From the IMG/VR virus record IMGVR_UViG_3300006056_000038, positions 1 to 64,000 of that record: DNA of 64,000 nt; one strand, 5' to 3'. This stretch comes from a virus. The notes beneath the pieces were generated by a model. The model was not told the origin of the DNA. It ran no database searches and worked only from the letters and a program-made list of their open reading frames with translations. Positions within the stretch are counted from its first letter, which is position 1. Every line of letters begins with the position of its first letter. The translations under genes and the position numbers were made by a program. This document shows positions 38,361-59,899 of the stretch, piece by piece.

Positions 38361-38371
38361 TTGCCGGAACT

Positions 38372-39679
38372 ATGTTGTTCCATATGAGCAACAAAATAAA
38401 GATATTGGTGTGCCCCTCGGATCGACAAGGTGTAGGATTCTGGAGATCCATATGGCCAACTCAACATTTGAAGCGTACGCACTCTGATGAGGTCGACATT
38501 CATTTGGATCTCAGCCCAAACACGGCAGACATCGATTATCTCTCCAAGTTCGACATCATCCATTTCCACCGAGCGCTCGGACCATACGATGGTTCTGAAG
38601 TATTGTTCTCAGAGCTGAGAAGACGTGGCGTGAAATTGGTGATGGACATCGATGACTATTGGATGCCGCCGCCAACACACCATCTGTATGCCATCATCAT
38701 CGCCGACAAGATGGATAAACAGATCGAGAACAATCTACGTCTCGTGGATTGTGTCACCACGACGACCGACATCTTTGCCGAGGAGATCCGGAAGTTCAAC
38801 CCCAATGTCGTGGTTCTGCCCAACGCCATCAATCGGGAAGAGTCAATGTGGGCATCCCAAACGGTTCCAGACCCATTGGGAAGAGTAAGGGTTGGATGGG
38901 CAGGAGGAAGTTCGCACAGTCATGACCTTATCAAACTCAAGGATTCCATGGCTCTTCTTTCGAATGATAACGGAATCCATGACAAGTTCCAATTCGTGAT
39001 GTCTGGTTTTGATGTTCGAGGGTCCATCACCGAGATCAATGGGAGCGAACGTAGAGTGCGACCCATCCATAAGCATGAGACCATCTGGCTTGAATTCGAG
39101 AAGATCTTCACCAATGACTACGCGTTGATCGATGATCCGGAGTACAAGAAATGGCTCCTGAAGATCGAGAACAAGGATTATCCGAACATGTACGAGAAGA
39201 ACTACGTGCGACGCTGGACGCTTCCCCTATCCCAATACGCCAAGCACTACGACTACTGCGACATCTGCTTGGCCCCGCTCGCGGAGACCTATGAGCATCG
39301 CGGACCTACGAATCCAAAGACCGGAGCTCCGGGGCCCATGTCCTATCGGGAACACACCTTCAATAAGGTAAAGAGCGAGATAAAGATCGTAGAGGCCGGA
39401 ATGAAGAAAAAGACCCTCATTGCGCAGGATTTCGGCATCTACAGCGAGCTGATAGAGGACGGAGTGAACGGTATCCTCGTCAACAAGTCCGATGACAAGA
39501 AAGGTTGGTACAAGGCCATCAAGCGCCTGATCAACGACCCGGAGCTGCGCCAGAGCATGGCCGAAAACCTACATGAGATGGTCAAGGACCGCTATGACAT
39601 CAATACGGTCAACGTCGCTCGCCTTGACTTCTACCGCTCGCTCGTAGGCGCCCACAAGGAAGCCGTCGCGCACGAATGA
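38372..39679 (+). CDS. Glycosyltransferase, GT-B fold (GT4/group-1-like)
   Basis: C-terminal E-x7-E-type motif KSEIKIVEAGMKKKTLIAQDFGIYSELIEDGVNGILV; 435 aa; first gene of the glycan cluster. Confidence 0.6.
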   Translation: MLFHMSNKIKILVCPSDRQGVGFWRSIWPTQHLKRTHSDEVDIHLDLSPNTADIDYLSKFDIIHFHRALGPYDGSEVLFSELRRRGVKLVMDIDDYWMPPPTHHLYAIIIADKMDKQIENNLRLVDCVTTTTDIFAEEIRKFNPNVVVLPNAINREESMWASQTVPDPLGRVRVGWAGGSSHSHDLIKLKDSMALLSNDNGIHDKFQFVMSGFDVRGSITEINGSERRVRPIHKHETIWLEFEKIFTNDYALIDDPEYKKWLLKIENKDYPNMYEKNYVRRWTLPLSQYAKHYDYCDICLAPLAETYEHRGPTNPKTGAPGPMSYREHTFNKVKSEIKIVEAGMKKKTLIAQDFGIYSELIEDGVNGILVNKSDDKKGWYKAIKRLINDPELRQSMAENLHEMVKDRYDINTVNVARLDFYRSLVGAHKEAVAHE

Positions 39680-39692
39680 ACATCCCCAAAAC

Positions 39693-39724
39693 AAAGAAGG
39701 GCGCTCAATTGAGCGCCCTTCTTT
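39693..39724. terminator. Bidirectional intrinsic terminator
   Basis: AAAGAAGGGCGCTC-aatt-GAGCGCCCTTCTTT with T-runs on both sides. Confidence 0.7.
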
Positions 39725-39742
39725 GTTTTGGGATTGCGGAAC

Positions 39743-40444
39743 TTAGATCCCGGACAACCGGGCCATTCTGCTGAGCTCCTTGGACAGGAGCGGGTTTGCT
39801 TTCTTGCCGAGACGATCCACACCTTCGTTCACCAAGGCGGTGCCACGAACGCTATGTTGTTCTCCTGCCTCATCGACAGCGACCTCATCGATCTCGATCT
39901 CGTCTTCTTCCTTTTCTTCTTCCGGAGCATCTTCGGTGGCTGCGTCTTCAGCAGGAGCCTCTTCGGTCTCCGCGTCATCACCCAGTTCGATAGCAGGCTC
40001 GTCCGTCACGTCATCGGTAACTTCCATGTCGTCCATTCCGGCGCCCACGGCTCCGTCCAGCTTCATGTCCAGTTCACGTCCAATGGCGGCCATCTTGGCT
40101 TCGAAGGTCTCAGGAGCCATTTCGGCATCCAAACCACCTTCCAAGTCAGCGTCCATGTCGCCATCCAGCTCAACGGTGTCATCCGATGGGAATTCGTCGG
40201 TCATCGGGTCCTCTTCCTTCAGGTGGGTTCCCTTCTTTTCGAACTTGGCGACCGGGGTACCTTTCTCGTACCACTCCTCGCCGGAGGCTGTTCCGCCCAC
40301 TTCGACTTCGTCGAGTTTGGCCAGTTCCTCGTTCACAGCGGCCAAGCGCGCCTTGATCTGGTCGATCTTGCGGATCTTGGCGATCTCTTCATTGATCATC
40401 CTGTCGATATCCGCGACCTTGATCTTGTTGGTTTTGTTCGTCAT
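39743..40444 (-). CDS. Highly acidic protein (possible prohead core/internal protein)
   Basis: 233 aa, more than 35% Asp/Glu (DDAETEEAPAEDAATEDAPEEEKEEDEIEIDE); N-terminal coiled-coil with EELAKLDEV, similar to TELAALNEV in the next gene. Confidence 0.45.
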   Translation of the reverse strand: MTNKTNKIKVADIDRMINEEIAKIRKIDQIKARLAAVNEELAKLDEVEVGGTASGEEWYEKGTPVAKFEKKGTHLKEEDPMTDEFPSDDTVELDGDMDADLEGGLDAEMAPETFEAKMAAIGRELDMKLDGAVGAGMDDMEVTDDVTDEPAIELGDDAETEEAPAEDAATEDAPEEEKEEDEIEIDEVAVDEAGEQHSVRGTALVNEGVDRLGKKANPLLSKELSRMARLSGI

Positions 40445-40454
40445 GGGTGTTGGT

Positions 40455-40811
40455 TTAGATGGTAGGGTTCAATTGGGTCTTCAACTTTTCCAGCTCAAGA
40501 CGAAGGGTTTCGTTCTCCTCCTTCAAGGCTTTCGCTTCGTCCAATGCGTCCACGACGGGCTCCTCCTTGAGGTCGTCCATGAGGCGTTTCACGTTCGAGA
40601 GGGCTTGTGGTTCCACAAAACCTGTCTTGGTGATGTTGCTGACGTCGTTCGGGGTTGCGAATCCGAATGAACCGACCATGCCTACCTCGTTCAGGGCGGC
40701 CAGTTCGGTATCGAATTTCTTCAGTTCCTCGAAGATCTCTCGTTTGCGCTTGATCGCCTTCGCTTCAGCGATGATGGCTTCCTGCACAAGGCTTGGGCTG
40801 ATTTTCTTCAT
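40455..40811 (-). CDS. Small coiled-coil protein
   Basis: 118 aa; TTATTTATGG motif (40849-40858 on plus) upstream. Confidence 0.45.
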   Translation of the reverse strand: MKKISPSLVQEAIIAEAKAIKRKREIFEELKKFDTELAALNEVGMVGSFGFATPNDVSNITKTGFVEPQALSNVKRLMDDLKEEPVVDALDEAKALKEENETLRLELEKLKTQLNPTI

Positions 40812-40945
40812 GATGGGTTACTTTCTTGGGTGCGCTCTTTACGCACATCCATAAATAACAGGAAAAACCAGAAATGCCTTTTTGATCCTATCGGGAAGAA
40901 AAAATATCTTCCGTCGTTGGATGTGATTTCTCTTGGTTTAGCTTT

Positions 40946-41308
40946 GTGCGAGCATATTTATTGTTCTACGCACCCTTCATGGACAACATCTTCACCGGCA
41001 CGTTGGACAACTTCAAGGAGCTGGTAGGTACGCAGGACAAGGTCATTATAGTGGATTTCTATGCCGAATGGTGCGGACCGTGCCGTGGACTGAGCGTCGC
41101 GATAGATGCGGTGGCCGAGAAATACGGGGAGATCATGGTGATCAAGGTGGACGTCGATAAGAACGGGGAGCTCGGCCGGTCCGCTCCTTACAACGTAAAG
41201 GGTATTCCCCAGATGTTCTTCATCAAGAACGGGGAGGTCATGGAAAAGACCGTGGGCCTGCAATCCATCGAGCGGATCAGCTCATTGATCGATCCGTTGC
41301 TGAACTGA
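40946..41308 (+). CDS. trx: Thioredoxin (probable start at MDNIFTG, about 40979)
   Basis: DFYAEWCGPCRGLS with the WCGPC active site, and the overall thioredoxin-fold order. Confidence 0.75.
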   Translation: MRAYLLFYAPFMDNIFTGTLDNFKELVGTQDKVIIVDFYAEWCGPCRGLSVAIDAVAEKYGEIMVIKVDVDKNGELGRSAPYNVKGIPQMFFIKNGEVMEKTVGLQSIERISSLIDPLLN

Positions 41309-41357
41309 TTGGATTCTATTTCTTCTTTTTCCTATCTTTGCGTCCTGACGGACCCGA

Positions 41358-42836
41358 ATGATAAGGCATATCCTTTTCTCTTCCAACGAAGCGTTCAAGC
41401 TCAATGAATTCGTTCTACGCGCCGAACGTTATATGCCCGCACCATTCGACCTGATCATCGATTGCAAGGGCAATGATGTATCGGAGGCGGCGTACGACAA
41501 GGTCATTTCGGAGTTGTACCTCGAAGATCGTTTCGGTTCCATCCAGAAAATGGACGGTGGATCGATAGCTGACGCGGTGAACGACGTCATGGAGGGATAC
41601 GACCCGGAAGACATCGTATGTCTCATCACAACCGATGAGATGCTTGTGGATGTCGTGGATGAAAACGCCATCGAGGAGGCGTTCAAGGAGAAGATGCTTA
41701 TGGCGTTCTCCCTACGGTTGGGAAAGAACATCACCAAGAACAGCATGGTCGGAATGGCCAATTTGGTGGTTCCTGTCCGGGAAGACGACACCATCATGGT
41801 GTGGGATTGGGACAAGCACTACGTGGACTTCTCCGGACCGTTGTCGGTCCATGGTCATTACTTCCGGGTCAAGGAGATCGCTCGAATGATCAAAAGGGCG
41901 GGCGGAAGTTCCTACGACGAACTGGAGGAGAACCTTCAGGTGTTCATGAACTTCCCCAAGAAACTCATGGCGTCCTTTGTCCAGAACAAGGCCTATTCGA
42001 TCGATCCACTCCTGCATGGGACCCATCGTGAAGATGTGAGCCGAGCGGCCGAGAAGCGCCTTCTGGACAACAATCCCGTTGCCATCGAGGTATCGGGCGA
42101 ACACAACGAAATCCATTTCAATCCATTCTTGGAGCTCATGTCGGAACTATATGCATGGCAACGAAGTCCCATTTTGTTCAAATTCCCCGCTCGTGGTCGT
42201 CGAGATAAGCTTTTGACGACCCTCAAGGCTTACCATGAACATCTGATCAACAAAGAGGATTTTCAATTCCTCATCAGCATCGATGAGGACGACTTGGAAC
42301 TCAACAACGACGAGACAAGGGCGGCGCTGGAGGCCAACAAGAACACAAAGGTCGTGGTGGGACCATCCATCGGAAAGATCGGAGCGGTGAACCGCGATAT
42401 GGACCAAGCTGCACCGTGGGATATCGTGGTGCTCCTGAGCGACGACATGATCCCGAAGATCAAAGGCTTCGACATGCTCATCCGCAAGGACATGCACAAG
42501 GCGTTCCCGGACGGTGACGGTGTATTGTGGTACAACGACGGGCATCAGGGAGACAAACTCAATACGTTGTGCATCCTCGGGAAGAAGTACTACGACCGCT
42601 TCGGCTGGATCTACTATCCCGGATATAAGAGCCTCTTTTCGGATAATGAATTCATGGAGACCTCCCAGCGTCTGGGGCGGGTGAAGTACAACTCGCTCTG
42701 CATCATCGAGCATCAACATTGGGTCTGGGGATACGGCGCCATGGACGACCTGTATATCGAGAACGAGAAGTACTTCAAAGAGGATAGCGAGCTGTTCCAA
42801 AAGCGCATGGCGGAAAACTTTGGACTTACAGCATGA
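41358..42836 (+). CDS. Two-domain putative glycosyltransferase (GT-A-like)
   Basis: 492 aa; the C-terminal half has D-rich motifs (ISIDEDDLE, LLSDDMIP) and a GT-A-like beta/alpha pattern. Assignment by pattern only. Confidence 0.4.
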   Translation: MIRHILFSSNEAFKLNEFVLRAERYMPAPFDLIIDCKGNDVSEAAYDKVISELYLEDRFGSIQKMDGGSIADAVNDVMEGYDPEDIVCLITTDEMLVDVVDENAIEEAFKEKMLMAFSLRLGKNITKNSMVGMANLVVPVREDDTIMVWDWDKHYVDFSGPLSVHGHYFRVKEIARMIKRAGGSSYDELEENLQVFMNFPKKLMASFVQNKAYSIDPLLHGTHREDVSRAAEKRLLDNNPVAIEVSGEHNEIHFNPFLELMSELYAWQRSPILFKFPARGRRDKLLTTLKAYHEHLINKEDFQFLISIDEDDLELNNDETRAALEANKNTKVVVGPSIGKIGAVNRDMDQAAPWDIVVLLSDDMIPKIKGFDMLIRKDMHKAFPDGDGVLWYNDGHQGDKLNTLCILGKKYYDRFGWIYYPGYKSLFSDNEFMETSQRLGRVKYNSLCIIEHQHWVWGYGAMDDLYIENEKYFKEDSELFQKRMAENFGLTA

Positions 42837-43561
42837 ACATGTGGCCGCCATTTTTTGTCGACCCCTATCAAGATGATATGACTCCGGATACGCCGCAGAA
42901 CAATATTCGAAATACAGTGAAAATGGAAAAGCTTGATGTATCAAAGGTCTTCGTGACCCATTGGGATGCGCTCACCGAAAGAAGAGCGTTCATGGAGGGC
43001 CAACTCCAAAAGAGCGGCATAAAGGACGTGGAATGGGTGACCTCCTTCCCGGTCCCGGAACTGGACAATGAGGAGTTGATCGCGAAGTACCCTGTTGTCT
43101 TCGCCCGAGGAAAGATGGACGCCCGCCTGAGTCCTCCTGTGACCTCTCTTCTTCTCAAGCATTGTTATGTCATCGAGGAGATGGTAAAGCACCAATATGA
43201 GTCCGCGCTCATCTTGGAGGACGACGCCATCCTCGCCAGCAACTTCGCCTCCAAGTTCAACCTCTATAAAAGCCAGCTTCCGGAGGAGTGGGACCTTTTG
43301 TGGGTGGGCACCTGTTGCAATATACATGCGCCCTATCAGCGAGGTAGCAACATCTATGAAGGAGATAGGTCGAGGTGTACCCATTGCTTTTTGATAAGCC
43401 TCAAGTGCGCCCAGAAAATACATGATGACATGTATTCCATCGATATGCCAATCGATTGGTATTATAATGCAATGATCAAGAGGCATTCTCTTCGGAACTA
43501 TTGGGCCGAGCCTCCATTGTCGATGCAGAGCAAGTCATTCAAAACCACCCTGCAACTATGA
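42833..43561 (+). CDS. Glycosyltransferase family 25-like (LPS glycosyltransferase type)
   Basis: THWDALTERRAFMEGQLQKSGIKDVEWV and the overall length fit the GT25 signature (..RR..M..QL...GI....F.A.DG). Confidence 0.45.
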   Translation: MNMWPPFFVDPYQDDMTPDTPQNNIRNTVKMEKLDVSKVFVTHWDALTERRAFMEGQLQKSGIKDVEWVTSFPVPELDNEELIAKYPVVFARGKMDARLSPPVTSLLLKHCYVIEEMVKHQYESALILEDDAILASNFASKFNLYKSQLPEEWDLLWVGTCCNIHAPYQRGSNIYEGDRSRCTHCFLISLKCAQKIHDDMYSIDMPIDWYYNAMIKRHSLRNYWAEPPLSMQSKSFKTTLQL

Positions 43562-44445
43562 GCATCAAGATAGCCTTCTTGGACTTCTGGGGCGACTTCG
43601 ATCCTCACAACAATTTCTTCAAAGACCTGTTGGCATCCATATCGGATGTTGAGGTAACGGATCCGCATGCCTGCGACGTGCTTTTCTTCTCGTGTTTCGG
43701 TCAACAAAATCTGGCCTATCGTAACAAGAAGCGCATCTACTTTACGGGCGAGAACCTTCGTCCGAGCTACGACGTTGATCGGGTGGACCACCGTGGATTC
43801 CGCTCGGACAAATGCGATTATTCCCTCTCCTTCGACTTCAGCGAAGACCCACGCAACATCCGTCTTCCGTTGTGGATGCTCCAGATCGACTGGTTCAACA
43901 AGAAGGGTTACGTCAATCCGAAATTCGTGATGCCGTACGATCAGCTCCACGACAATCTTCTGATGCGGAGGGAGCGTACGGAATTCTGCTCCTTCGTCTA
44001 CAACAATGACGCTCCGCATCGCAAGGAGATCGTACAGGAGCTGTCCCGCTACAAGAAAGTGGATTGCTTCGGGAAGCCGCACGGCAATTGGTTCTACGGC
44101 GAAGACAACAAGCTTGCCACTTTGTCGAGGTACAAGTTCAACATCTGTTTCGAGAACTCCATCCATCCGGGCTATTACACCGAGAAGCCGATCCATGCGA
44201 AGTACGCCGGGTGCGTTCCGGTCTATTGGTCCGACGCCGACATGGGCATCGACTTCAATGCTGCGGCATACTTGAACCTGAACGACTTTGCTGGCATTAA
44301 GGAGCTATGCGAACGGATTGTCGAGTTGGACCAAGACGACCAGCAATACGAAGCGCTGCGTTCCCGACCGATGTTCACGCTGCAACAGGACCCCAAGCAT
44401 TTGCTTGATGCAATTGTCGATCAACTAAAGCCCATTCTGACATGA
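43558..44445 (+). CDS. Glycosyltransferase family 10-like (alpha-1,3-fucosyltransferase motif)
   Basis: [34 protein letters not shown] matches the GT10 signature (F/Y)xLAFENS...(D/G)YxTEK...AL..G.VPV. Start taken at MSIKIAF, overlapping the previous stop. Confidence 0.6.
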
Positions 44446-45533
44446 AGACGGCATTGATCACAGGTTCAGCGGGGCTCATTGGCTCCCAAGCGTGTCGTTT
44501 CTTCCACGATAGGGGCTATCGCATCATCGGTATCGACAACAACATGCGTGCCTACTTCTTCGGAGAGGAAGCATCCACCATGGCCTCGCGCAACGGATTG
44601 GAGGCCTCCCTGTCGAACTACCAACACTACGTCACCGACATCCGCGACCACGCTTCCTTGGAACGATTGTTCCGGGCGTATTCCTCGGACATCGACATCA
44701 TCATCCATACCGCCGCGCAGCCATCGCACGACTGGGCCGCCAAGGAACCATTGACGGACTTCAGCGTCAACGCCACAGGCACCATGAACCTGTTGGAGTT
44801 GACCCGACTGCACTGCCCCAAGGCCACCTTCATCTTCACCTCCACCAACAAGGTGTACGGCGATCGACCGAACTATCTGGAGCTAGTAGAAATGGAGAAA
44901 CGCTGGGAGCTTGACCATGAGCTCCACGAGTTGTCATCGCATCTGGAGGGCGCCAGCATCAATGGCATCGATGAGCGCATGTCCATTGACCGCATCACCC
45001 ACTCGGTGTTCGGGGCCTCCAAGGTGGCCGCTGACATCATGTGCCAAGAGTACGGGAGGTACTTCGGGATGAACGTTGGCGTGTTCCGGGGCGGATGCCT
45101 CACGGGCCCCAACCATGCCGGAACGGAGCTTCACGGCTTCCTGTCGTATTTGGTGAAATGCATCGTCCACGACAAGCCGTACACGATATTCGGGTACAAG
45201 GGCAAGCAGGTTCGCGATAACATCCACAGCGCCGATCTGATCGCCATGTTTTGGGAGTTCCACAAGAACCCGAGGCCGGGCGCCGTATACAATGCTGGAG
45301 GCGGAAGGGAGAATTCCACGTCCATTCTGGAGGCCATCGATTCGATCAATGAAATCGCCGGAACACAGTGGAGCAACTACACGGTCTCGAAGGACAACCG
45401 TATCGGAGATCACATCTGGTACATCAGCGACCTGACGCGCTTCAAGCTGGACTACCCGAAGTGGAGAATGAACATCAACCTGAAGGAGACCATCAAGCAA
45501 ATGGTGGAAGTTGAAAAAATAAGTACGAGATGA
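44442..45533 (+). CDS. NAD-dependent nucleotide-sugar epimerase/dehydratase (extended SDR); the catalytic YxxxK reads FGASK
   Basis: GSAGLIGS Rossmann motif; [10 protein letters not shown]; ...[13 protein letters not shown] aligns with PYGASKAAAD of CDP-paratose-epimerase / UDP-Glc-4-epimerase-type enzymes, but with Phe at the Tyr position. Confidence 0.65.
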
Positions 45534-46174
45534 TATATCCAAGACAAACCGACCTTCCATACCCGCAGCCTTGGGAGTTTGTTTATGAGAACTTCTTCAA
45601 AGACAAAAAAGATTTGTTTTATGTCGATGTTGGCGCGAATGACGGACTTTTGGTCTCAAATACAGCTTTTTTCGAACTTGACATGAACTGGATAGGCATA
45701 TGTATAGAGCCTCATCCTCTTGCATTTTCAAAGCTGGAGACCAATAGAAAGTGTGTAAAATACAACTGTTGCATTAGCGATGAATCAACCACCTTGGAGT
45801 ATAACAAGGTTTCTGGATATGCCGAAATGCTGAGCGGCATAAGATCCGTTCAGGACGATCAACACATGAGAAGGATAATGAGCGAAATACAAAAGCATGG
45901 TGGCACTCTTGAAGTGATCAATGTTGAGTCAAAGAGATTGGATGCCATCTTGAATGAAAACAACATACAACATGTCGACTACCTGTCGATAGACACAGAA
46001 GGCGCAGAAATGAAGGTGCTTTCAAGTTTGGACCTGACTGCTTTTGATATAAAAGTTATAAGTGCAGAGAATTCAGATACGAATGCAACTGTACGGGATT
46101 TCCTGAACTCAAAGGGGTATGACTTTATCACCAAAGTTTGTTCAGATGAAATCTTTGTAAAGCGAAATCCATGA
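45530..46174 (+). CDS. FkbM-family SAM-dependent methyltransferase
   Basis: [19 protein letters not shown]...IEPHP...[12 protein letters not shown] matches the FkbM domain pattern. First gene of the AT-rich island; its start overlaps the stop of the upstream gene (ATGA). Confidence 0.55.
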
Positions 46175-50027: not shown

Positions 50028-50037
50028 CTCAGTCACC

Positions 50038-50736: not shown

Positions 50737-50749
50737 AATACACTGAAGC

Positions 50750-51859: not shown

Positions 51860-51869
51860 CAAAAACAAA

Positions 51870-52484
51870 GTGAAAATGAACAAAGTAGACCAAGTAATAC
51901 AAGACATTAAAAATGGCAAACCCGTCATCATAGTTGATGATTATGACCGAGAGTTTGAAGGGGACATCATGCTCGCAGCAGAGATGGCAGATAAGTACAA
52001 TCTCATTTTCTCTATGAGGCACGCCAAAGGCCTTATGTGTCTCCCTTGCTTGCAGGAGCGTTGTGATCGATTGGATATCCCCATGATGAGAACAAACAAC
52101 AATGACAAATTTGGTACGCCATTTACAGTATCAATTGATGCCATTGAAGATACGACCACGGGTATGTCTGTTTTTGACAGACTGAAGACCATATCTGTTT
52201 TTCTTGATGAAAGCTCAAGCCCGAAACAGCTTGCTCAGCCCGGACACTTATTTCCACTTCGAGCAAGACCCGGACTCCTGAAAGAGAGAAGGGGACATAC
52301 GGAAGGCTCAATTGAATTGTGCCTGCTATCCGGGCTAAAACCTGTAGCGGTCATAATCGAGATTATGAACGAAGATGGAACCATGATCAAAGGCGAGCAG
52401 CTTGAGGACTTCTCCAAGATATACAACTTGAGCATAATCTCAATAGAAGAGATCCATAATGCAGTTTATAACAAGGGCCTATAA
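51870..52484 (+). CDS. ribB: 3,4-dihydroxy-2-butanone-4-phosphate synthase (RibB)-like enzyme
   Basis: Collinear with E. coli RibB: IIVDDYDREFEGDIMLAAE (VLDDEDRENEGDMIFPAE), MRHAKGLMCLPC (IRHGSGIVCLCI), FGTPFTVSIDA (YGTGFTVTIEA), PGHLFPLRARPGLLKERRGHTEGSIEL ([27 protein letters not shown]), MNEDGTM (TNDDGTM). Confidence 0.75.
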   Translation: MKMNKVDQVIQDIKNGKPVIIVDDYDREFEGDIMLAAEMADKYNLIFSMRHAKGLMCLPCLQERCDRLDIPMMRTNNNDKFGTPFTVSIDAIEDTTTGMSVFDRLKTISVFLDESSSPKQLAQPGHLFPLRARPGLLKERRGHTEGSIELCLLSGLKPVAVIIEIMNEDGTMIKGEQLEDFSKIYNLSIISIEEIHNAVYNKGL

Positions 52485-53418
52485 CAGCTTTGAAATTGAT
52501 AGCTCCAACCTATCAGTTGTCATCAAGAGGTCAAAGGAAACCAGACTCCTTGAGGAAATAGGCTATTATGATAACTTGCCAAAAGAGTTGGCCCCATTCT
52601 TCCCAAGGCATTTCCATTCGGATAAAATCGGGCCAGAGTTTCGCCTTGGCTTAGAATATTATGCATATCAAAATGTTGGCAACAAAATGATATCGCATGA
52701 ATATGATGATGAGTTCTGGAATTCATTTTTCAACATCATAGGGAAGTATTTCAAAGCTTACAAGTCCATTACTGAGTCGCCCAAAAATGAGAATGATTGC
52801 AGGATGATGTTCATTGATAAGACCGAAAAAGAATACCAGTCCTTGGTAGACAATTTCATGTTCTTCGGCGAATTGACCTCTCATGACACCATCAATCTAA
52901 ATGGCAGAAAGCTGCGATCATTTTCTCATGTCTGGCCCAAGGTAAGGTCATACATCGATGGGAGTTGTCTTTCGGAAAAAACGTACTTGATACATGGAGA
53001 CCTTTGCTTCAGCAACATTCTATTTGGACAGAACCCAATAAACAATGATGTGATAATCAAGCTTATTGACCCAAGGGGCTCCTTCGGCGGTTCAATGCTG
53101 GGGGATATGTACTATGACCTTGCAAAGCTTTCACACTCTTCCAGCGGTGGTTATGAATACTTCATAAACGATAGTTTTGAAGTAAAAAGCGACGGGAACA
53201 AGTGTACTTTGTCTTATGATAACGACAACAAAGACAGAGTGAACGACCTGTTCATCAAATTTGTGGAAGACAATGAGTTTGACATGAAAAAGATCAAGAC
53301 CCTAGAGGGGGCTATTTTTATTGGAATGTGCGCCAGACATTATGATTCACCAGAAAGACAGAAAGCAATGTTTTTGACTGGCCTGAGAATTCTAAATGAT
53401 ATCTATGAAACAGTTTAG
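52459..53418 (+). CDS. Protein-kinase-like-fold phosphotransferase (APH/choline-kinase/sugar-kinase family)
   Basis: Brenner motif YLIHGDLCFSNILF (H-x-D-x4-N), followed by IKLIDPRGSFGG (the IDxxG segment that, with the Brenner motif, defines this kinase family). Confidence 0.5.
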   Translation: MQFITRAYNSFEIDSSNLSVVIKRSKETRLLEEIGYYDNLPKELAPFFPRHFHSDKIGPEFRLGLEYYAYQNVGNKMISHEYDDEFWNSFFNIIGKYFKAYKSITESPKNENDCRMMFIDKTEKEYQSLVDNFMFFGELTSHDTINLNGRKLRSFSHVWPKVRSYIDGSCLSEKTYLIHGDLCFSNILFGQNPINNDVIIKLIDPRGSFGGSMLGDMYYDLAKLSHSSSGGYEYFINDSFEVKSDGNKCTLSYDNDNKDRVNDLFIKFVEDNEFDMKKIKTLEGAIFIGMCARHYDSPERQKAMFLTGLRILNDIYETV

Positions 53419-53776
53419 GTATTGCTTCGATCTGGATGGTACAATATGCGAAACCAAATCACTTGGACAAAGCTATGCAGATGTCAACCCTCTTCCCGGC
53501 GCAGTAGAAACACTGAAAAAACTAAGAACCCAAGGGCACTACATAATAATTCTCACCGCGAGGAACATGTCAACCTATGACAATAATTTGGGAAAAGTCA
53601 TTGCAAATCAGGCGCCAATTGTCCTAGATTGGCTGAGAAAATACGAAATCCCATATGATGAGTTGTTGTTCGGAAAGCCGAATGCGGACTTCTTCATTGA
53701 TGATAAAGGGGTTCAATTCACCAACTGGAATGAGCTAAACCAAAAACTGCTTATAGATGAGAAAATTTCTAATTGA
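53396..53776 (+). CDS. HAD-superfamily phosphatase
   Basis: Motif I FDLDGTI, motif II IILTAR, motif III K....FFIDD; 126 aa. Confidence 0.6.
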   Translation: MISMKQFRYCFDLDGTICETKSLGQSYADVNPLPGAVETLKKLRTQGHYIIILTARNMSTYDNNLGKVIANQAPIVLDWLRKYEIPYDELLFGKPNADFFIDDKGVQFTNWNELNQKLLIDEKISN

Positions 53777-54563
53777 TACAGCCAATCAGGACTACATACG
53801 AAACCTTTGGAAATCCTTAAACGGCACCGTTGATAACAAGCTTGTTCAAGGAATAACAACCAATCCAAATGCGTTTTTCAAAACGAACGAATTGCACCTG
53901 AAGGACTGGGAGAAATCTCTCCCGAAGCTTTGTGAAATTGTATCAGAGATAAGACAGGACGACGCTGGATATGTGCATATTCAAGCTCCGAATTCATCCA
54001 TGAATGGAGATGCTATGTTGAGATATGCCGAGCATGTCCATAAACTAACCGATGGAAATACCAAGATCGCCATAAAAATTCCACCATTTGTTCGAGCGCT
54101 GAAAGCGGTAGACCAACTAAGGGAAATGGTCAAGATCAACGTCACTGGAATAGCAGACTGCTCAACTGCTTTGAAATGCATCACGTATGGTGTTGACTTT
54201 GTCAGTATCATACCCGGAAGAATGGAGGAGGTCGGGATAGATGCCAAAAAGCAGATATCCTTCATCCTGCAATCATGCAGGAAGAATTCTGAAATAATCA
54301 CAGGGTCTATGAGAACAATAGACGGATTGATATGGGTTTTTCAGTATGATACCATACCCACGATTGGGGAGAAGGTTTGGAATATTCTACTGGAAAACAA
54401 CAACCTTCAAAAAGTCATTGACATTGACTATAGCATGGCGCACGATGATAGTGAATTTTCTCCAGAGATCAATGAGTTGAATTCCAACCTGTCAAATTCC
54501 TTTTTCCAACAAATGGATGAATGTGGGAGAACGTGTTTTGAAGACTGGAAAAAATCATCATAA
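53757..54563 (+). CDS. Transaldolase/fructose-6-phosphate-aldolase (TalC/Fsa) family enzyme
   Basis: FLIDTANQDYI...GITTNPNAF matches the L(Y/F)LDT..(L/V)..I...G(V/I)TTNP signature. KIAIKIPPFVRALKAV aligns with the Schiff-base lysine region (VVKVPVTAEGLAAIKML of E. coli Fsa). Confidence 0.6.
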   Translation: MRKFLIDTANQDYIRNLWKSLNGTVDNKLVQGITTNPNAFFKTNELHLKDWEKSLPKLCEIVSEIRQDDAGYVHIQAPNSSMNGDAMLRYAEHVHKLTDGNTKIAIKIPPFVRALKAVDQLREMVKINVTGIADCSTALKCITYGVDFVSIIPGRMEEVGIDAKKQISFILQSCRKNSEIITGSMRTIDGLIWVFQYDTIPTIGEKVWNILLENNNLQKVIDIDYSMAHDDSEFSPEINELNSNLSNSFFQQMDECGRTCFEDWKKSS

Positions 54564-54575
54564 AGCTCATTTAAC

Positions 54576-55394
54576 ATGTTGGGCGTACAAGCAGGCAATG
54601 AAGCCATAAAGAACCTGATCCGGTCAGGAAAGCCATTCCTCGTGAACCGCATGCGGTCCGAGGTGGATGTCATTTTCAAATCCATCAAAGGTCTCCCTCT
54701 GAACAAGGAGAACCACGATGACCTGTACATCAAATGCGGCGTATACCCCTATGGGGACATGGAGCAAATTGGGCCCTTCATCCGGGAGACCATCACCTCG
54801 ATGAACTTGGCCGACGCATGGGGCTATTGCACATTCTACTGCCCCTATCAGGACTGGCTCATCAAGAACGTATCCCGGACCCAATGCGTGTTCGACTTCG
54901 TTGCCCTTGAGCCGATCTACCATGAAGTACCATGGACCCTTGAGCTTGCAGGTAAGAAAGTGCTCATCGTCCATCCTTATGTGGATACAATGAAACGGCA
55001 GGAATCGAAGCTTCTGGAGATCGCAGGCGGCAAGGAACAGTTCAGGGACGTGGAGTTCAAGTACATCAAGGCGGTGCAGTCGATGACCGGAAATGCCCCG
55101 CACGGGTCGTGGAGCGAATCCTACCAAACAATGAAGGATGAGATCGCCGACGCAGACTTCGACGTGGCCCTTCTGGGGTGCGGCGGATACGGCATGCCAC
55201 TGAGCGGATACATCAAGTCCATCGGCAAGAGCGCTGTGTACATCGGAGGCGGGCTTCAATTGATCTTCGGCATCAAAGGGAAGCGATGGGACGACTCGGA
55301 CATGTCCAAACATTACAACGAACACTGGGTGCGCCCCTCCGTGGAAGAAACCCCGGAGAACTACATGCTCCACGAAAACGGAGCGTATTTTTGA
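54576..55394 (+). CDS. Hypothetical protein (possible glycosyltransferase-like)
   Basis: 272 aa; GC content returns to the backbone level here; conserved-looking block FDVALLGCGGYGMPLSGYIK. Confidence 0.4.
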   Translation: MLGVQAGNEAIKNLIRSGKPFLVNRMRSEVDVIFKSIKGLPLNKENHDDLYIKCGVYPYGDMEQIGPFIRETITSMNLADAWGYCTFYCPYQDWLIKNVSRTQCVFDFVALEPIYHEVPWTLELAGKKVLIVHPYVDTMKRQESKLLEIAGGKEQFRDVEFKYIKAVQSMTGNAPHGSWSESYQTMKDEIADADFDVALLGCGGYGMPLSGYIKSIGKSAVYIGGGLQLIFGIKGKRWDDSDMSKHYNEHWVRPSVEETPENYMLHENGAYF

Positions 55395-56050
55395 TGAAGC
55401 TCCTCTGCTATTTCACCCCGTCCCACAAGGACATGTTCGAGGGCTTCCTCAAACGAAGCTGCGACCTATTTGGGGAGCATGAGATTATCGCCTTCATGGA
55501 CCAAGAGCAGTTGTCCGACGACGGCTCATTCTACAGCAAGGGATTCCACGAGACGGTGGTCAAGAAGATGGATTTCATTCTTGGTTCCAACGCGTGGGAT
55601 GACACGGAGCATTTCATCTTTTCGGATGCTGACGTCATTTTCACGGCGCCCACCCAAGAGTACTTTCTGGAGCAGATCGCCGAGCATGACATCGTGTTCC
55701 AAAGCGACCAGACCACTTACAACAGCGGGCTGTACGTGTTCCGCAATAACTCCAAGGTCAAGGCGATGTTCGAAGAGGCGGTCCGCGTAAAGGACCAACA
55801 CTTCGGGGACCAGTTGTGCATCGATGCTGCCCTGCGCGCCGTTCCGCTCAAGTGCAAGGCGTTTGACAAGACCATCTTCAACATCTCCTTCTACATGGGA
55901 GGAAGTCTTTGGGACAACGCCAGCACCATTCATTTCCCCAAGCACATGCGAGCCTACCATGCCAACTTCATCGTCGGTGTGGACAACAAGATAAAAGCGC
56001 TGACCCAAGCCCATGACCGATTCGTTGCGCCCAAGCTCAGCCACGCATAA
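55394..56050 (+). CDS. Putative GT-A nucleotide-diphospho-sugar transferase (DxD type)
   Basis: Start MKLLCYFTP (trimmed from track ORF 55178-56050). FIFSDADVIF (DxD), ...DQTTYNSGLYVFR. Confidence 0.45.
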   Translation: MKLLCYFTPSHKDMFEGFLKRSCDLFGEHEIIAFMDQEQLSDDGSFYSKGFHETVVKKMDFILGSNAWDDTEHFIFSDADVIFTAPTQEYFLEQIAEHDIVFQSDQTTYNSGLYVFRNNSKVKAMFEEAVRVKDQHFGDQLCIDAALRAVPLKCKAFDKTIFNISFYMGGSLWDNASTIHFPKHMRAYHANFIVGVDNKIKALTQAHDRFVAPKLSHA

Positions 56051-56849
56051 GTACCCGTTCTACCACGAGGGGCTTTACTTGGAGGAATACTTCCACCGCC
56101 ATCGGAAGCGCCATGACGGGCGGCAATACATCGATGCGTTCTGGACCAACATCTACTCCAACCGCTCCTTTGCTGGCATCCATAGCGTGGATGTGCAATC
56201 GGAGCTCGACAAGCTGGACCCGAACGGGCGATATTTCACCGTATGCCAGAACGACGACGGGGTCTTGGAACGCCTGCCAAAGGACACGCTGAAGTTCTGC
56301 GCCGGAGGCAACAACGTCGATGATGCCACCATCCCCATTCCTCTATTGGCGTCGCCCATTCCCGGCATTGACCTTTCCCGGGAGAAGGACCTGCTGGCGA
56401 GCTTCGTCGGAAGCAACACCCATCCTTTGCGTGCTGAGATGCACAAGACACTTCGTGGTCGTCCGGGATTTTCGGTACAGATGAAGAATTGGTCCCTTGA
56501 ACTTCCGGACGCTTCCGCAAGGCAGTTCATGGACCTGTCATCTCGCTCGAAGTTCATGCTCGCCCCGAGAGGATATGGAAGGACGAGTTTTCGTCTCTAC
56601 GAGGCCTTCCAGTTCGATTGCATTCCCGTGTATATCAGCGATTCGATGTTCCTTCCTTATTCTGATGTCATAAATTGGAATGATTTTACTATATTGATAA
56701 CTCCCGATAGAATCGGGGACATAGAGAATATCCTTAATGCTTCATTGACGAATGGTGAATATGACAGGATATTGAACAACGTCAAACAAAACAAACATCT
56801 GTTTACCATGGAGTACATGGTCGAATATATCGAAAGCAAAACAACATGA
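56013..56849 (+). CDS. Exostosin-like glycosyltransferase (GT47-type C-terminal domain)
   Basis: SRSKFMLAPRGYGRTSFRLYEAFQFDCIPVYISDSMFLPYSDVINWNDFTILI matches the exostosin/GT47 signature (S.F.L.P.G...S.R..EA...GCIPVI.SD...LPF.D..DW..FS). Confidence 0.5.
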   Translation: MTDSLRPSSATHKYPFYHEGLYLEEYFHRHRKRHDGRQYIDAFWTNIYSNRSFAGIHSVDVQSELDKLDPNGRYFTVCQNDDGVLERLPKDTLKFCAGGNNVDDATIPIPLLASPIPGIDLSREKDLLASFVGSNTHPLRAEMHKTLRGRPGFSVQMKNWSLELPDASARQFMDLSSRSKFMLAPRGYGRTSFRLYEAFQFDCIPVYISDSMFLPYSDVINWNDFTILITPDRIGDIENILNASLTNGEYDRILNNVKQNKHLFTMEYMVEYIESKTT

Positions 56850-57616
56850 GAACATTAGGCATTTCCATCGACGGCGTCATTCGGGACTTCAACTCCCAGT
56901 TCCATAAGACCTACGTCAAGACGTTCATCCATAACGATTCGCTCGTCGCCGCCAATATCCCTTCACATGCCGAAGCGCGCATGAACGGCTTGGGAGATGG
57001 AGACTTCGTGGCACAAGAGACCACCGAAAGTGACGAACTCATGGTGCAGCAGGCTGTTGAGAAAAAGGAAAAGGACCTGATCTCCCTACCCGTCAACAGC
57101 GACGACTTGCTCAACCACTATCGCTTCGAAGAGGGGAAGATGGATTTCATTACCACGGCAGATGGGAAGGAACCCGATAAGATCATCACGCCGAAGGATG
57201 CCTTGAACAAATTCATCTTCGAGGATTATCCGTTCCAGATCTTCGGCATGGCCTCCGAATACGATGGTGCCAATGAAATGGTGAACCGCATCCAAGGCTA
57301 CGGCCGTCAGAAGGAATTCTTCAACGTCGTTCTTCTGTCATCCGCGCAGAAACAGGCCATTCCCGCTACTTACAACTTTTTGGCGCGTTGCCATTCACGC
57401 GCCAAGTCGGTCGTATTCGTGGAGCGTGAAGAAGACAAGTGGGACCACTGCGACGTGCTCATTGATGCGAATCCACGCGCCATCCAAGCGGTGCCAACGG
57501 ACAAGTTCGTCATCCGCATTTTGCGCGACTGGAACCAATATGACGACATCGAGTACACTTATTCCAATCTGAAGGAGGTGCTCAGTTCCGGCGTTCTGGA
57601 CAAGCTGTTCAAGTGA
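56846..57616 (+). CDS. Hypothetical protein
   Basis: 256 aa. The N-terminus ISIDGVIRDF is reminiscent of, but does not satisfy, the HAD DxDGx motif. Confidence 0.4.
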   Translation: MRTLGISIDGVIRDFNSQFHKTYVKTFIHNDSLVAANIPSHAEARMNGLGDGDFVAQETTESDELMVQQAVEKKEKDLISLPVNSDDLLNHYRFEEGKMDFITTADGKEPDKIITPKDALNKFIFEDYPFQIFGMASEYDGANEMVNRIQGYGRQKEFFNVVLLSSAQKQAIPATYNFLARCHSRAKSVVFVEREEDKWDHCDVLIDANPRAIQAVPTDKFVIRILRDWNQYDDIEYTYSNLKEVLSSGVLDKLFK

Positions 57617-57642
57617 GTCGATAACCTCATATCCATTTCTGG

Positions 57643-57668
57643 AATGGGCGACAATATTGTCGCCCATT
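57643..57668 (+). terminator. Intrinsic terminator
   Basis: AATGGGCGACAA-tat-TTGTCGCCCATT followed by TTCTTTTTGC. Confidence 0.65.
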
Positions 57669-57714
57669 TTCTTTTTGCACAAAACTCCCTTTGTTTTCGG
57701 TAGCCTCCCATTCT

Positions 57715-58950
57715 ATGTTTATTCAAAGCGATAATAGCATGGCAGAGAACATGGAAACTACCGAAGCGGTGATGGACGCCCCGACCGGGAATCTATCCCA
57801 CAACGCGTTCATCGATCAGGTGATCGACAAGATCAAGAACAACGATTTCACCGTCCACTTCTATTCCCCGGCGATGAACACGCCAAGTGGTGGCATCGGT
57901 GTATTGCTGCGTCTGGCCCGCGCCCTGAAGGACAATGGACATAGGGTAAAGGTGTGGTATGAGCCACGGTTCGACCAAAAGGCGAGCATGGATGCCTCAA
58001 CAAAGGCCAAGAAGCGCATCGACCTGTTCGACCAGTTCCATCCGAACTGGGTGGACTTCAACATCTCGGACATCGACTTCGTCCCGCTGGGTGATTCGAA
58101 GATCAATTTCGTGAATGGAGAGTCGCAGGAAGCGACGCCGTTGAAAGTGGACACACAGGACATGTTCTTCATCCCTGAGGGTTTCCCCAATATCATGGAA
58201 AAGACGGCGGGTGTGACGTGCAAACGCATTGTGCTGGCCCAAAGCTGGCTCTACGTCCTGTCGGGCATGCAGAACGGTCAGACGTGGCAGAATTTCGGCA
58301 TCAAGGATGTTGTGAGCGTTTCGGACGCCATCACCGAATACTTGGATACGGTAATGCCGGGTCTTTCCATCAAGCAGTTGAAACAAGGGATCAACCGGGA
58401 GATCTTCCATCCCCCCACCAAGCGGTCGGAAAAGTATCCATGTATCGGCTTTGTCAATGGACGTGATTCCATCTCGCAATTGAAGCTGATCAACATGATC
58501 AAGATGTTCTCTTTGGCCTGCCCTCATTTCCGTTGGGTGAAGTTCATCGAGCTATCCAACCTGAGCCGCGAGGAGTTCGCAGAGCGCATCCGTTCCTGCG
58601 CATTCGTGCTCTACGCCGATGACGTGGCTGGCTTCGGCACACTACCTCTTGAGGCCATGGCCTGCGGAACGCACGTGATCGGATGGGCCGCCTTCGGTAG
58701 CAAAGAATACGTACAGAAGGACAATGGCTTCTGGTGCAACAACGGCGACGTGTTCCAGATGGCGGAAATGCTCGGCATTGCGCTGGACAAGTGGTTGAGC
58801 GGTGAGATGGACCTTGAAGACACGCAGGAAACCTATGAGGAAGTCCTCAGCAGGTATACCGTGGAGGGAGAAAAAAGTCGCATTACCGAGATCGTAGAAG
58901 AATATAAAACAGAAAGAACACATGAACTTGAAAGAGCTAAAAAACAGTGA
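57715..58950 (+). CDS. Glycosyltransferase, GT-B fold (GT4-like)
   Basis: Start uncertain (57691/57715/57749). C-terminal E-x7-E-type motif LYADDVAGFGTLPLEAMACGTHVIGWAAFGSKEYV. Confidence 0.55.
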   Translation: MFIQSDNSMAENMETTEAVMDAPTGNLSHNAFIDQVIDKIKNNDFTVHFYSPAMNTPSGGIGVLLRLARALKDNGHRVKVWYEPRFDQKASMDASTKAKKRIDLFDQFHPNWVDFNISDIDFVPLGDSKINFVNGESQEATPLKVDTQDMFFIPEGFPNIMEKTAGVTCKRIVLAQSWLYVLSGMQNGQTWQNFGIKDVVSVSDAITEYLDTVMPGLSIKQLKQGINREIFHPPTKRSEKYPCIGFVNGRDSISQLKLINMIKMFSLACPHFRWVKFIELSNLSREEFAERIRSCAFVLYADDVAGFGTLPLEAMACGTHVIGWAAFGSKEYVQKDNGFWCNNGDVFQMAEMLGIALDKWLSGEMDLEDTQETYEEVLSRYTVEGEKSRITEIVEEYKTERTHELERAKKQ

Positions 58951-59899
58951 CGTTCTGGTGGGCATGTTCGTAAAGAACGTGGTCCACGAAAGCATGCTGC
59001 ACGAATCGCTGTACAGCATTGCCATGCAGCACCTTCCCGTCAATTTGATCATTCTTCATTCGGGTCTTTCCGAAACGGAACTGGACAAATTGAAGGCCAT
59101 CGCCAAAGAGCCTACAGTTCGTATGAAAACGAACAAGAAGATCAAGGTGAAGAACGAGGATGGCACGGAGACCGAACGGGACGAGATCGTCACGGAGAGT
59201 GCAGGTGGTTCATTGAACTACGTCATCCAACAAGTGGAAGTGAACAGCTTCCCGGATGTCTTCAACATCGTATTCCAGACGGCCGTCGAGCATGGGTATA
59301 AGATCATGTCGGTGACCGAACCGGAGGACGTATACTCTCTGCGCTGGTTCGAGCTGGTGGATGAATGGCATAAGGAAAATCCCGAGATTTCCATGTTCCT
59401 TCCGCTGATCAAGCACATGAATTTCGGTACGTTCCAAGGATTCATGAACGAATCGTGCTGGGCCGAGGGCATGGCGGAAGAAGTCGGTAAATACGACAAC
59501 AACCTGTTGTTGAAATTCAACTTCGCCGCACATCCGCTGGGAGCCGCCATGGTCGTCCCAAACATGATGAAGGAAACCGGCGCATACGAACATCGTGGTG
59601 ACCTGACGTATCCGATGAAGAGCAGCATCAAACTGTTCAACTACTACGAGTTCTTCCTGCGATCGGCATACAATGACATCAAGATGATGAACATCCCGAG
59701 GATCGGTTACGAAATGCGGGTCATCGATATCGCCTCATACGATGCGCGGTCCAGCAAGATCCCGACCACACTTCTGAGCTTGCCTTCCGACAAGGGTGGC
59801 ATCACCGCAGGGGAGGCGCAGTTCTGGGCGAAGTATGCGACGGACGCCTACTTCATGGAAGAGGATGATAAAACAGTCACCTATGAACATAGCATCTGA
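58922..59899 (+). CDS. Hypothetical protein (possibly GT-A-like); last gene of the glycan cluster
   Basis: 325 aa; the N-terminus VLVGMFVKN...SLYSIAMQ loosely resembles GT2 N-termini. Weak. Confidence 0.35.
   Translation: MNLKELKNSDVLVGMFVKNVVHESMLHESLYSIAMQHLPVNLIILHSGLSETELDKLKAIAKEPTVRMKTNKKIKVKNEDGTETERDEIVTESAGGSLNYVIQQVEVNSFPDVFNIVFQTAVEHGYKIMSVTEPEDVYSLRWFELVDEWHKENPEISMFLPLIKHMNFGTFQGFMNESCWAEGMAEEVGKYDNNLLLKFNFAAHPLGAAMVVPNMMKETGAYEHRGDLTYPMKSSIKLFNYYEFFLRSAYNDIKMMNIPRIGYEMRVIDIASYDARSSKIPTTLLSLPSDKGGITAGEAQFWAKYATDAYFMEEDDKTVTYEHSI

Follow-up and report, generated by a model that had tools for sequence, protein, structure and literature searches.

Clusters with many glycosyltransferase (GT) genes, known as 'lipopolysaccharide' (LPS) clusters, have been on record in large T4-like cyanophages since 2005. 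For example, P-SSM2 carries 24 'LPS' genes (PMC1079782), jumbo cyanophages have 15-gene clusters with at least eight GT families (PMC7824862), and S-SCSM2R has 13 GTs of at least seven families, including GT10 and GT25 (PMC12801897). Here, we analyzed a 64,000-nucleotide stretch of viral DNA (IMG/VR record IMGVR_UViG_3300006056_000038, positions 1 to 64,000), referred to as the window, in which 26 genes at 38372-59899, 24 of them on the plus strand, form a block rich in GT genes. With high confidence, we regard this block as a mosaic, horizontally exchanged glycan-assembly locus. Like the clusters of P-SSM2, S-SCSM1, S-SCSM2R and the unannotated one of S-SKS1, it is carried on a T4-related myovirus backbone. 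The cyanophage clusters lie on a single strand and hold 15-24 genes for GT1/4, GT2, GT10, GT11, GT25, nucleoside-diphosphate-sugar epimerases/dehydratases, kinases and nucleotidyltransferases, and the window is similar; in both, gene content varies between related phages and the function is only hypothesized. In contrast to the cyanophages, the window represents a very divergent backbone clade and shows no cyanophage signature genes (psbA, hli or similar) among its scanned open reading frames (ORFs), and its locus has clade-conserved anchor GTs, a demonstrable cassette replacement and a compositionally foreign island. A preliminary description of this DNA had likened the locus to giant-virus machineries, but the closest precedent is found in the LPS/cell-wall clusters of large T4-like cyanophages, and the cassette of S-SKS1 is homologous.

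The window is a metagenomic phage contig, of which 34442-55533 is 100% identical to the ENA contig ERZ27257534 k141_596645 (102 kb); parts of the window also match three Logan assemblies. The genes were called identically on the ENA contig by an independent gene caller, and the ORF starts named in the preliminary description are all real. The major capsid protein (MCP) is of the gp23 type (phrog_138, 1e-65), the prohead protease is of the T4 type (Peptidase_S77) and the sheath is contractile (phrog_23). The label 'T4-like' applies in a distant sense only, since the best full-length MCP identity among 50,697 GenBank phage records was 32%, to a 484-kb uncultured huge phage. Relatives in IMG/VR were found at MCP identities of 91%, ~75% and 63-70%, the longest contigs reaching 372 kb (IMGVR_UViG_3300014208_000024) and 518 kb (3300014205_000170); another group of hundreds has ~44% identity. 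Judging from these relationships, the phage belongs to a little-known clade of jumbo phages whose kinship with T4 is remote. A 'moraphage' lineage with four core GT orthogroups (PMC12619734) may be related to it. When L021, L005 and L008 are compared with the window, clade members with 75% identical MCP differ greatly in GC content (0.28 against 0.50-0.53), implying that their hosts are very different or that composition drifts rapidly.

A GT call was considered firm when its score exceeded the Pfam gathering cut-off, and supported when PHROG, profile or fold evidence was found. On this basis, the block encodes six firm GTs (two GT1/GT4, GT25, GT10, PF03407 and GT47) and five supported ones, so that the proposed number of at least nine holds, and two further candidates (50038 and 54576; genes are named by their first position). 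The GTs and candidates are as follows.

38372-39679, plus strand: GT-B glycosyltransferase 'GT4a', a conserved anchor (Glycos_transf_1 32 bits, weak Glyco_transf_4)
41358-42836, plus strand: two-domain protein, left anchor (phrog_14945 'glycosyltransferase', 3e-18, over residues 277-470, the C-terminal half)
42833-43561, plus strand: GT25-family glycosyltransferase (PF01755 48 bits against a cut-off of 24, profile 3-124 of 199)
43558-44445, plus strand: GT10 fucosyltransferase-like protein (FucT_N PF18025 76 bits, Glyco_transf_10 PF00852 74 bits)
46171-47118, plus strand: GT-B/GT4-like protein with EX7E motif (invariant E234-x7-E242; profile match to PDB 3oy2)
47750-48505, plus strand: protein of the GT-A/nucleotidyltransferase superfold, paralog of 49233 (phrog_13607, 7e-23; aligns with the 49233 family)
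49233-50027, plus strand: protein of the GT-A/nucleotidyltransferase superfold
50038-50736, plus strand: large-family enzyme, GT candidate (4486 cluster representatives)
54576-55394, plus strand: weak GT-D-like candidate (Pfam GT-D-like 16.1 bits, cut-off 27; NCBIfam GT-D_rel 16.8, cut-off 75)
55394-56050, plus strand: nucleotide-diphospho-sugar transferase of GT-A type (PF03407, Nucleotid_trans, 52 bits)
56013-56849, plus strand: GT47 exostosin-like protein (PF03016 77 bits against a cut-off of 33; profile on the C-terminal half only, 145-293 of 293)
57715-58950, plus strand: GT-B glycosyltransferase 'GT4b', right anchor (Glycos_transf_1 35 bits; 80% identity in the closest relative)
58922-59899, plus strand: GT-A-fold partner of GT4b (AlphaFold2 pLDDT 86; Foldseek against PDB)

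Most of these ORFs could be placed in GT families or folds by HMM, profile or fold comparison, so that the refuting result named in the preliminary description did not occur, and the proposed GT-B (38372 and 57715), GT10, GT25 and GT47 genes all scored above Pfam cut-offs. GT4a also matches phrog_7162 ('glycosyltransferase', 1.7e-43) and has homologs in seven relatives at 68% and ~50% identity. In the GT10 protein, a predicted α-1,3/4-fucosyltransferase by its CAZy family, both the FucT N-terminal and the catalytic C-terminal domains exceed the curated cut-offs; it is 42% identical to its S-SKS1 homolog, ~50% to those in IMG/VR contigs and 27-30% to those in giant-virus metagenome-assembled genomes (MAGs). 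The GT47 protein shows 44% identity to S-SKS1 and 40% to the huge phage LR756501. The GT-B/GT4-like assignment of 46171 is upheld by its EX7E motif and by a profile match (E 9e-4) to the chlorovirus GT B736L (PDB 3oy2), the sole PDB relative of the family; 46171 itself has no Pfam match, but PF00534 is found on some family members, and some are labeled 'glycosyltransferase' by JGI. Its homologs in S-SKS1 and the IMG/VR contig L009 are 62-64% identical, and that of 47750 in S-SKS1 is 31% identical. The five genes proposed as GT-A/DxD candidates fared differently, since 55394 (PF03407), 58922 (fold) and 41358 (PHROG GT) were placed, whereas 50038 and 54576 could not be assigned to a GT family. 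By Foldseek, 58922 matches WrtF, SpsA, TarP and RmlT (E 1e-9 to 1e-7); it has 60 homologs at 38-82% identity and no match in GenBank phages. The left-anchor protein 41358, which is 63% identical in the closest relative, has no Pfam or PDB match, and single-sequence PDB searches with 46171, 50038, 58922 and 41358 were uninformative. The 50038 domain is elsewhere fused to GT2, GT7C, GT15, PLOD-GT or methyltransferase domains. No Pfam, PDB or profile relative was found for it, and hhalign of its family against the two GT-A-fold families gave no relation. An assignment of 54576 to GT-D (DUF1792) was not supported, as its scores were below the cut-offs, covered only the C-terminal 60 residues and had no PDB support.

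In addition to the GTs, the short-chain dehydrogenase/reductase (SDR), the methyltransferases and the sugar-activation genes that had been proposed for the block were all found, namely:

44442-45533, plus strand: extended SDR nucleotide-sugar epimerase/dehydratase (Pfam Epimerase 134 bits; RmlB and GalE models sub-threshold)
45530-46174, plus strand: FkbM-type methyltransferase 1 (Methyltransf_21 84 bits)
47115-47753, plus strand: FkbM-type methyltransferase 2 (Methyltransf_21 54 bits)
50750-51859, plus strand: class I S-adenosylmethionine methyltransferase with Cys-rich N-terminus (Methyltransf_23 31 bits; homologs in S-SKS1 and L009)
48502-49236, plus strand: sugar-phosphate nucleotidyltransferase (NTP_transferase 42 bits; closest PDB entries 4evw and HddC 5xhw/6jq8)
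51870-52484, plus strand: 3,4-dihydroxy-2-butanone-4-phosphate (DHBP) synthase RibB (Pfam 232 bits; TIGR00506 200 against a cut-off of 177)
52459-53418, plus strand: kinase of aminoglycoside phosphotransferase (APH) fold (weak Pfam APH match, 4e-4)
53396-53776, plus strand: small haloacid dehalogenase (HAD) phosphatase of the EcbF/BcbF 'capsule biosynthesis phosphatase' type (TIGR01689 82 bits, below the cut-off of 162; NT5C, HAD)
53757-54563, plus strand: paralog of the transaldolase/fructose-6-phosphate aldolase (TAL/FSA) family (TAL_FSA 65 bits)

When the block was compared with related phages, its flanks were conserved and its centre at 42833-56849 was replaced in the closest relative; gene order in the relatives therefore shows conserved anchors bracketing a replaceable centre. 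Instead of the one uniform super-cluster described previously, the locus consists of these anchors and a variable, partly recently imported centre. In addition to the anchor GTs listed above, three features define this architecture.

40946-41308, plus strand: thioredoxin, left anchor and first gene of an operon-like run (Pfam 85 bits; 72% identity in the closest relative)
56846-57616, plus strand: conserved protein, right anchor (71% identity in the closest relative; ~32% in L091 and L031)
45530-54563, plus strand: low-GC island of 12 genes (GC 0.37-0.43, GC content at third codon positions, GC3, 0.41-0.49)

In the closest relative (MCP 91%), whose contig was walked in three steps, homologs of thioredoxin (72%) and 41358 (63%) are followed by ~10.9 kb with ~11 ORFs (partly typed), of which only three have family-level similarity (27-43%) to the window block. 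Beyond this centre come homologs of 56846 (71%), GT4b (80%) and 58922 (75%), and then those of the next four genes. The left anchors are GT4a and the thioredoxin-41358 pair, and the right anchors are 56846, GT4b and 58922. Synteny of GT4b-58922-59796 extends to several clade members whose MCP identity is only 43-46%; exact-word patterns for GT4b relatives in IMG/VR gave no match, the patterns being too strict. Seven related contigs have the PhoH-37060-38018-GT4a segment (36199-39679) in the opposite orientation, so that GT4a in them converges on a homolog of 33538-35883.

The centre itself is composite, being made of an older, adapted part (GT25-GT10-SDR on the left, and 54576-PF03407-GT47 on the right) and the freshly imported 45530-54563. 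All genes flanking the island have GC3 values of 0.63-0.78, and the sharp step at 45530 and 54563 therefore argues for recent import. Its closest homologs are found in low-GC phages, such as S-SKS1 (cassette GC 0.33) and L009/L010 (0.36). An assembly chimera was considered and rejected, because three independent Logan assemblies and the ENA contig run through the left boundary at 45530 with 100% identity; the right boundary at 54563 is also spanned by the ENA contig.

Using megablast, no match to the whole block was found in GenBank phages. Using tblastn with GT10, GT47 and RibB against the 50,697 GenBank phage records, matches to GT10 were limited to S-SKS1 and a single huge uncultured phage, and those to GT47 to S-SKS1 and a 735-kb huge-phage sequence deposited twice, in agreement with the earlier statement that both families are rare in phages. 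S-SKS1 (NC_020851) is a cultured phage with the host Synechococcus WH7803, and its 33.3-48.5 kb region carries at least 13 homologous genes on one strand, with 31-65% identity and largely collinear. The order there is GT47, GT25, GT10 (split), homologs of 50038 and 49233, a methyltransferase, a homolog of 47750, a nucleotidyltransferase-RibB fusion, kinase, HAD, TAL and a homolog of 46171, with SDRs. The fusion is one 475-aa coding sequence (CDS) annotated as DHBP synthase only, whereas the GT10 gene is split into two CDSs (record positions 38066-39493 and 43534-44390 for these observations), and the HAD is annotated as 'phosphoheptose isomerase'. The GT25-GT10 pair is present in 10 IMG/VR contigs in addition to S-SKS1, L009 and L010 carry the same cassette genes, and an SDR homolog with 65% identity immediately follows GT10 in L008, L013 and L014. 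As judged from these homologs, the centre is shared, and largely syntenic, with the cyanophage S-SKS1 and other aquatic phages. No match to the anchor GTs was found within the 40-kb region of S-SKS1 that was fetched. The 46171 family is very abundant, with 2132 metagenomic matches, most of them 60-80% identical; Tara Oceans data and contigs of 138-217 kb are among them, and this abundance suggests that the cassette is common in aquatic phages.

The locus is flanked by structural gene modules, as had been noted, but the block is not uninterrupted on the plus strand, since two minus-strand genes (39743-40444 and 40455-40811) and a strong terminator break it.

39685-39732, between convergent genes: bidirectional intrinsic terminator with a 20-bp stem
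39743-40811, minus strand: two acidic coiled-coil-like proteins of 233 and 118 aa (independent gene caller; 61-70% identity in the closest relative)

A further terminator at 38327-38348 leaves GT4a flanked by terminators on both sides, and GT4a is thus a separate transcription unit. The minus-strand genes have no family matches in Pfam or PHROG and are not glycan enzymes; they are preceded by a late-promoter-like motif at 40850-40858, and a virion or scaffold role is possible for their products. From thioredoxin (40946) to 57616, the genes form an operon-like run with 4-nt ATGA stop/start overlaps from 41358 to 50027 and with gaps of no more than 13 nt or overlaps from there onward, an arrangement by which the genes of the run are translationally coupled.

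The motif CTATTTATG (YTATTTATR) occurs 13 times in the window, compared with 0.76 expected, and 12 of the 13 sites precede a start codon by 4-64 nt; the sheath and prohead protease genes are among the genes so preceded. The sites are as follows.

2079, 4414, 10186, 10616, 15457, 15470, 18046, 30832, 33501, 36167, 37039, 40850 and 61224: CTATTTATG motif

We consider CTATTTATG a candidate late promoter of this phage clade. The motif is missing from the plus strand of the whole glycan block, which suggests that the block is expressed pre-late. The T4 late promoter TATAAATA was not enriched (one site, 0.43 expected), and the gene at 59928-60842, considered as a gp55-like late sigma factor, had no Pfam, PHROG or PDB profile match, and this assignment was abandoned.

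Within the imported island, the RibB-kinase-HAD-nucleotidyltransferase-TAL/FSA genes deserve separate consideration. The five genes are contiguous in L009 and L010, and contiguous or tightly linked across three phage lineages. RibB is 65% identical to that of S-SKS1, its best GenBank-phage match, and 57% to that of L009, and no other riboflavin genes are adjacent to it. The TAL paralog is 46% identical to the S-SKS1 cassette copy and only 24% to the ordinary talC of S-SKS1. For the kinase family, no PDB relative was found by profile search and no NCBIfam model exists, but it occurs in 79 bacterial or archaeal loci, beside the same HAD in 58 and a nucleotidyltransferase in 61, with GT1, GT2 or GT4 nearby. 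Kinase and nucleotidyltransferase form a single ~550-aa protein in 71 loci, with the kinase as its C-terminal half, as in LicCA (LicC/LicA kinase-cytidylyltransferase pairs). The taxa with this kinase-HAD-nucleotidyltransferase module include Myxococcota, Planctomycetota, Clostridia, Bacilli, Thaumarchaeota and Asgard archaea, and its substrate appears to be uncharacterized. RibB and TAL were never found in these cellular loci; RibB and a dedicated TAL/FSA paralog are joined to the kinase module only in phage cassettes.

The logic of GDP-heptose synthesis (isomerase, kinase, GmhB, HddC) is related, as the window shares the kinase-HAD-nucleotidyltransferase triad and its nucleotidyltransferase has HddC among its relatives. 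However, the kinase is of the APH fold and not of the GHMP type, no GmhA is present, and RibB and the TAL/FSA paralog are attached. A GDP-/ADP-heptose pathway was rejected because the window and the viral loci contain no sequence resembling the GmhA query, and only 2 of 80 bacterial triad loci do; with this query, a negative is weaker than a positive would be. The nucleotidyltransferase-RibB fusion of S-SKS1 points to nucleotide activation of the RibB product or one of its derivatives, and we found nothing relevant in the literature on a RibB-linked glycan pathway. We propose, as a speculation that we ourselves hold rather doubtful, that the five genes encode an undescribed pathway from ribulose-5-phosphate via RibB to a nucleotide-activated C4-derived or rearranged sugar or polyol, which the linked GT 46171 would install in the glycan.

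Alternatively, RibB could serve riboflavin synthesis, TAL the pentose-phosphate pathway (like cyanophage talC) and thioredoxin redox or nucleotide metabolism, as separate auxiliary metabolic genes (AMGs) parked beside the GTs. All three stand alone as AMGs in other phages, and RibB scores as a bona fide RibB. Nevertheless, the linkage of the five genes in three phage lineages, the nucleotidyltransferase-RibB fusion in S-SKS1, the retention by S-SKS1 of its own talC beside the divergent cassette copy, and the translational coupling of the genes make this explanation most unlikely.

What the assembled glycan is attached to has to be judged from the genes. We favor a host-envelope acceptor, although only tentatively, since the whole explanation given here, including this acceptor, seems to us somewhat less than an even chance. 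According to it, all block products would be soluble cytoplasmic enzymes, as their families indicate. An SDR-modified nucleotide sugar, probably of the 6-deoxyhexose type, would be the donor for GT10, and a second donor would be the unit activated by RibB, kinase, HAD, nucleotidyltransferase and TAL/FSA from pentose-phosphate intermediates. About 9-11 GT-A and GT-B glycosyltransferases would then add sugars stepwise, and the two FkbM-type and one class I methyltransferases would O-methylate them. The acceptor, the weakest step, may be a host envelope glycolipid at the cytoplasmic face of the inner membrane (an LPS/lipooligosaccharide (LOS)-type core or similar) that would be exported by the host. 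The infected cell would thereby be re-coated over a long latent period, for example blocking superinfection or re-adsorption of progeny, and fast cassette swapping would reflect diversifying selection on the surface glycan.

Several features are in line with a host-envelope acceptor. GT25, GT10 and GT4 enzymes are typical of LOS/LPS outer-core synthesis, which does not need Wzx or Wzy. The HAD resembles a capsule-biosynthesis phosphatase, the lack of the putative late motif on the block's plus strand fits pre-late expression, and the cassette is portable between unrelated backbones, as in S-SKS1. Apart from an internal RibB strand, none of the 26 proteins has a membrane segment (19-residue Kyte-Doolittle mean >1.6), so that any export would be performed by the host; Pfam families of flippases, polymerases, initiating phosphoglycosyltransferases, ABC transporters and ligases are also absent from the block. 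A role in modifying the host surface is also what has been hypothesized for the homologous clusters of cyanophages (PMC1079782, PMC7824862, PMC12801897).

The solubility of all enzymes and the lack of lipid-carrier, flippase and polymerase genes would also fit virion glycosylation, in which the anchor GTs (GT4a, 41358, GT4b, 58922) would prime capsid, tail or decoration proteins and the cassette would extend and methylate the glycan into a lineage-specific coat. Such virion glycan coats are found in mycobacteriophages, chloroviruses and mimiviruses. The location between structural modules, the chlorovirus GT as sole PDB relative of the 46171 family, the GT10 homologs in giant-virus MAGs and the two acidic proteins, which are preceded by the late motif and conserved with the locus, all speak for it. 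The conservation of anchor GTs at very different GC, and probably in different hosts, also argues for a phage-borne acceptor. A precedent for virion glycosylation is the work of Freeman et al. (2023), cited in PMC12619734 and PMC12801897. However, the block lacks the putative late motif that precedes the structural genes, S-SKS1 has the cassette without anchor GTs in the 40 kb examined, and no acceptor-like Ser/Thr-rich extension turned up, although no systematic search was made. We consider virion glycosylation possible but on the whole unlikely.

A third target would be DNA, with some or all GTs glycosylating 5-hydroxymethylcytosine, 5-hydroxymethyluracil or 5-hydroxycytosine to evade restriction. 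Such glycosylation of DNA bases occurs in T-even phages and in systems reportedly described by Pyle et al. The T4-related backbone, the apparently non-late expression and the GT-B and GT-A pair conserved across the clade would suit such hypermodification, and glycans of several sugars on DNA are described in two reports (bioRxiv 10.1101/2023.12.21.572611; PMC13326640). However, no hydroxymethylase, TET/5mYOX, C5-methyltransferase or match of the α- or β-glucosyltransferase (AGT/BGT) type was found among the scanned ORFs of the 64-kb window or in the next 10 kb, which together make up the lesser part of the genome. DNA glycosylation does not typically involve GT25, GT10 or GT47 enzymes, three methyltransferases or a capsule-type phosphatase, and ~20 genes are far above the known DNA-glycan systems. 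We therefore regard DNA as a very unlikely target.

Several points weigh against the host-envelope explanation that we favor. No sequence feature points to a particular acceptor. The GT4b-58922 pair is kept in phages with GC contents of 0.28-0.53, whose hosts probably differ widely, a pattern more readily accounted for by an acceptor that the phage brings along, either a virion protein or DNA. Structural gene regions lie on both sides of the locus, and the late-promoter role of CTATTTATG is itself inferred. At the level of single enzymes, the fold of 47750 and 49233 does not distinguish a GT from a nucleotidyltransferase, and 50038 and 54576 are GT candidates only.

Other known systems share part of this organization. 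Bacterial O-antigen and capsule loci also have conserved flanks, a recombining centre, low-GC import, and activation enzymes together with GTs and methyltransferases. The window differs from them in having no Wzx, Wzy, Wzz, ABC transporter, initiating phosphoglycosyltransferase, ligase or membrane protein, and in its lytic-type phage carrier. Giant-virus clusters (chlorovirus A064R/B736L and Megavirinae) are similar in their own cytoplasmic activation of rare sugars, their many soluble GTs, their methyltransferases and their clade-specific occurrence. Their target (capsid or fibrils) has been demonstrated, however, whereas that of the window locus is putative, and the gene sets are not orthologous. 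Mycobacteriophages of the Che8 type likewise have soluble phage GTs and a methyltransferase near structural genes, but their systems comprise 2-4 genes and draw on the nucleotide sugars of the host, and their acceptor is proven (the C-termini of capsid and tail-tube proteins).

Outside the glycan block, further observations were made in the window. The prohead protease gene (28988-30811, minus strand) is split by an intein with a LAGLIDADG domain, and this region and the ORF at 30894-32081 are low in GC. Two large low-GC ORFs among the structural genes (5765-7606 and 23082-25880, both minus strand) resemble homing endonucleases or mobile insertions; one has DUF7487 and DUF559 (Vsr-like), and the other an N6/N4 DNA methylase, DUF559 and a Ros/MucR domain. 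A protein with an SPFH/Band 7 domain is also encoded among the structural genes (21599-23008, minus strand). About 12 kb between the capsid gene and the homolog of 13584 is present in the window and missing from relatives. No tRNAs were found in the window. Past its right end, the ENA contig runs on for ~70 kb, and the next 10 kb encodes large proteins (620, 990 and >946 aa) without Pfam matches, which are probably tail or baseplate components.

In conclusion, this kind of locus is already known from big cyanophages, and its RibB-containing unit is the most novel element. Although large glycan clusters were first reported from aquatic T4-like phages two decades ago, the target of glycosylation has never been shown. 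The locus behaves like a bacterial O-antigen locus, in which the anchors are kept and the centre is swapped wholesale between phages with 91% identical MCP; this swap and the fresh low-GC cassette imply that the glycan is under strong diversifying selection. The cassette is passed between unrelated backbones and is present in the cultured pair of S-SKS1 and Synechococcus WH7803, in which the target can be determined directly. The compact RibB-containing unit may yield a new glycan constituent and, if the proposed pathway is true, would provide a new microbial glycan building block that is widespread in aquatic phages, given the more than 2000 metagenomic homologs in the 46171 family. If the host surface is the target, the locus would represent phage-driven serotype conversion by lytic jumbo phages, and if the virion is the target, virion glycosylation would be extended to aquatic T4-related jumbo phages.

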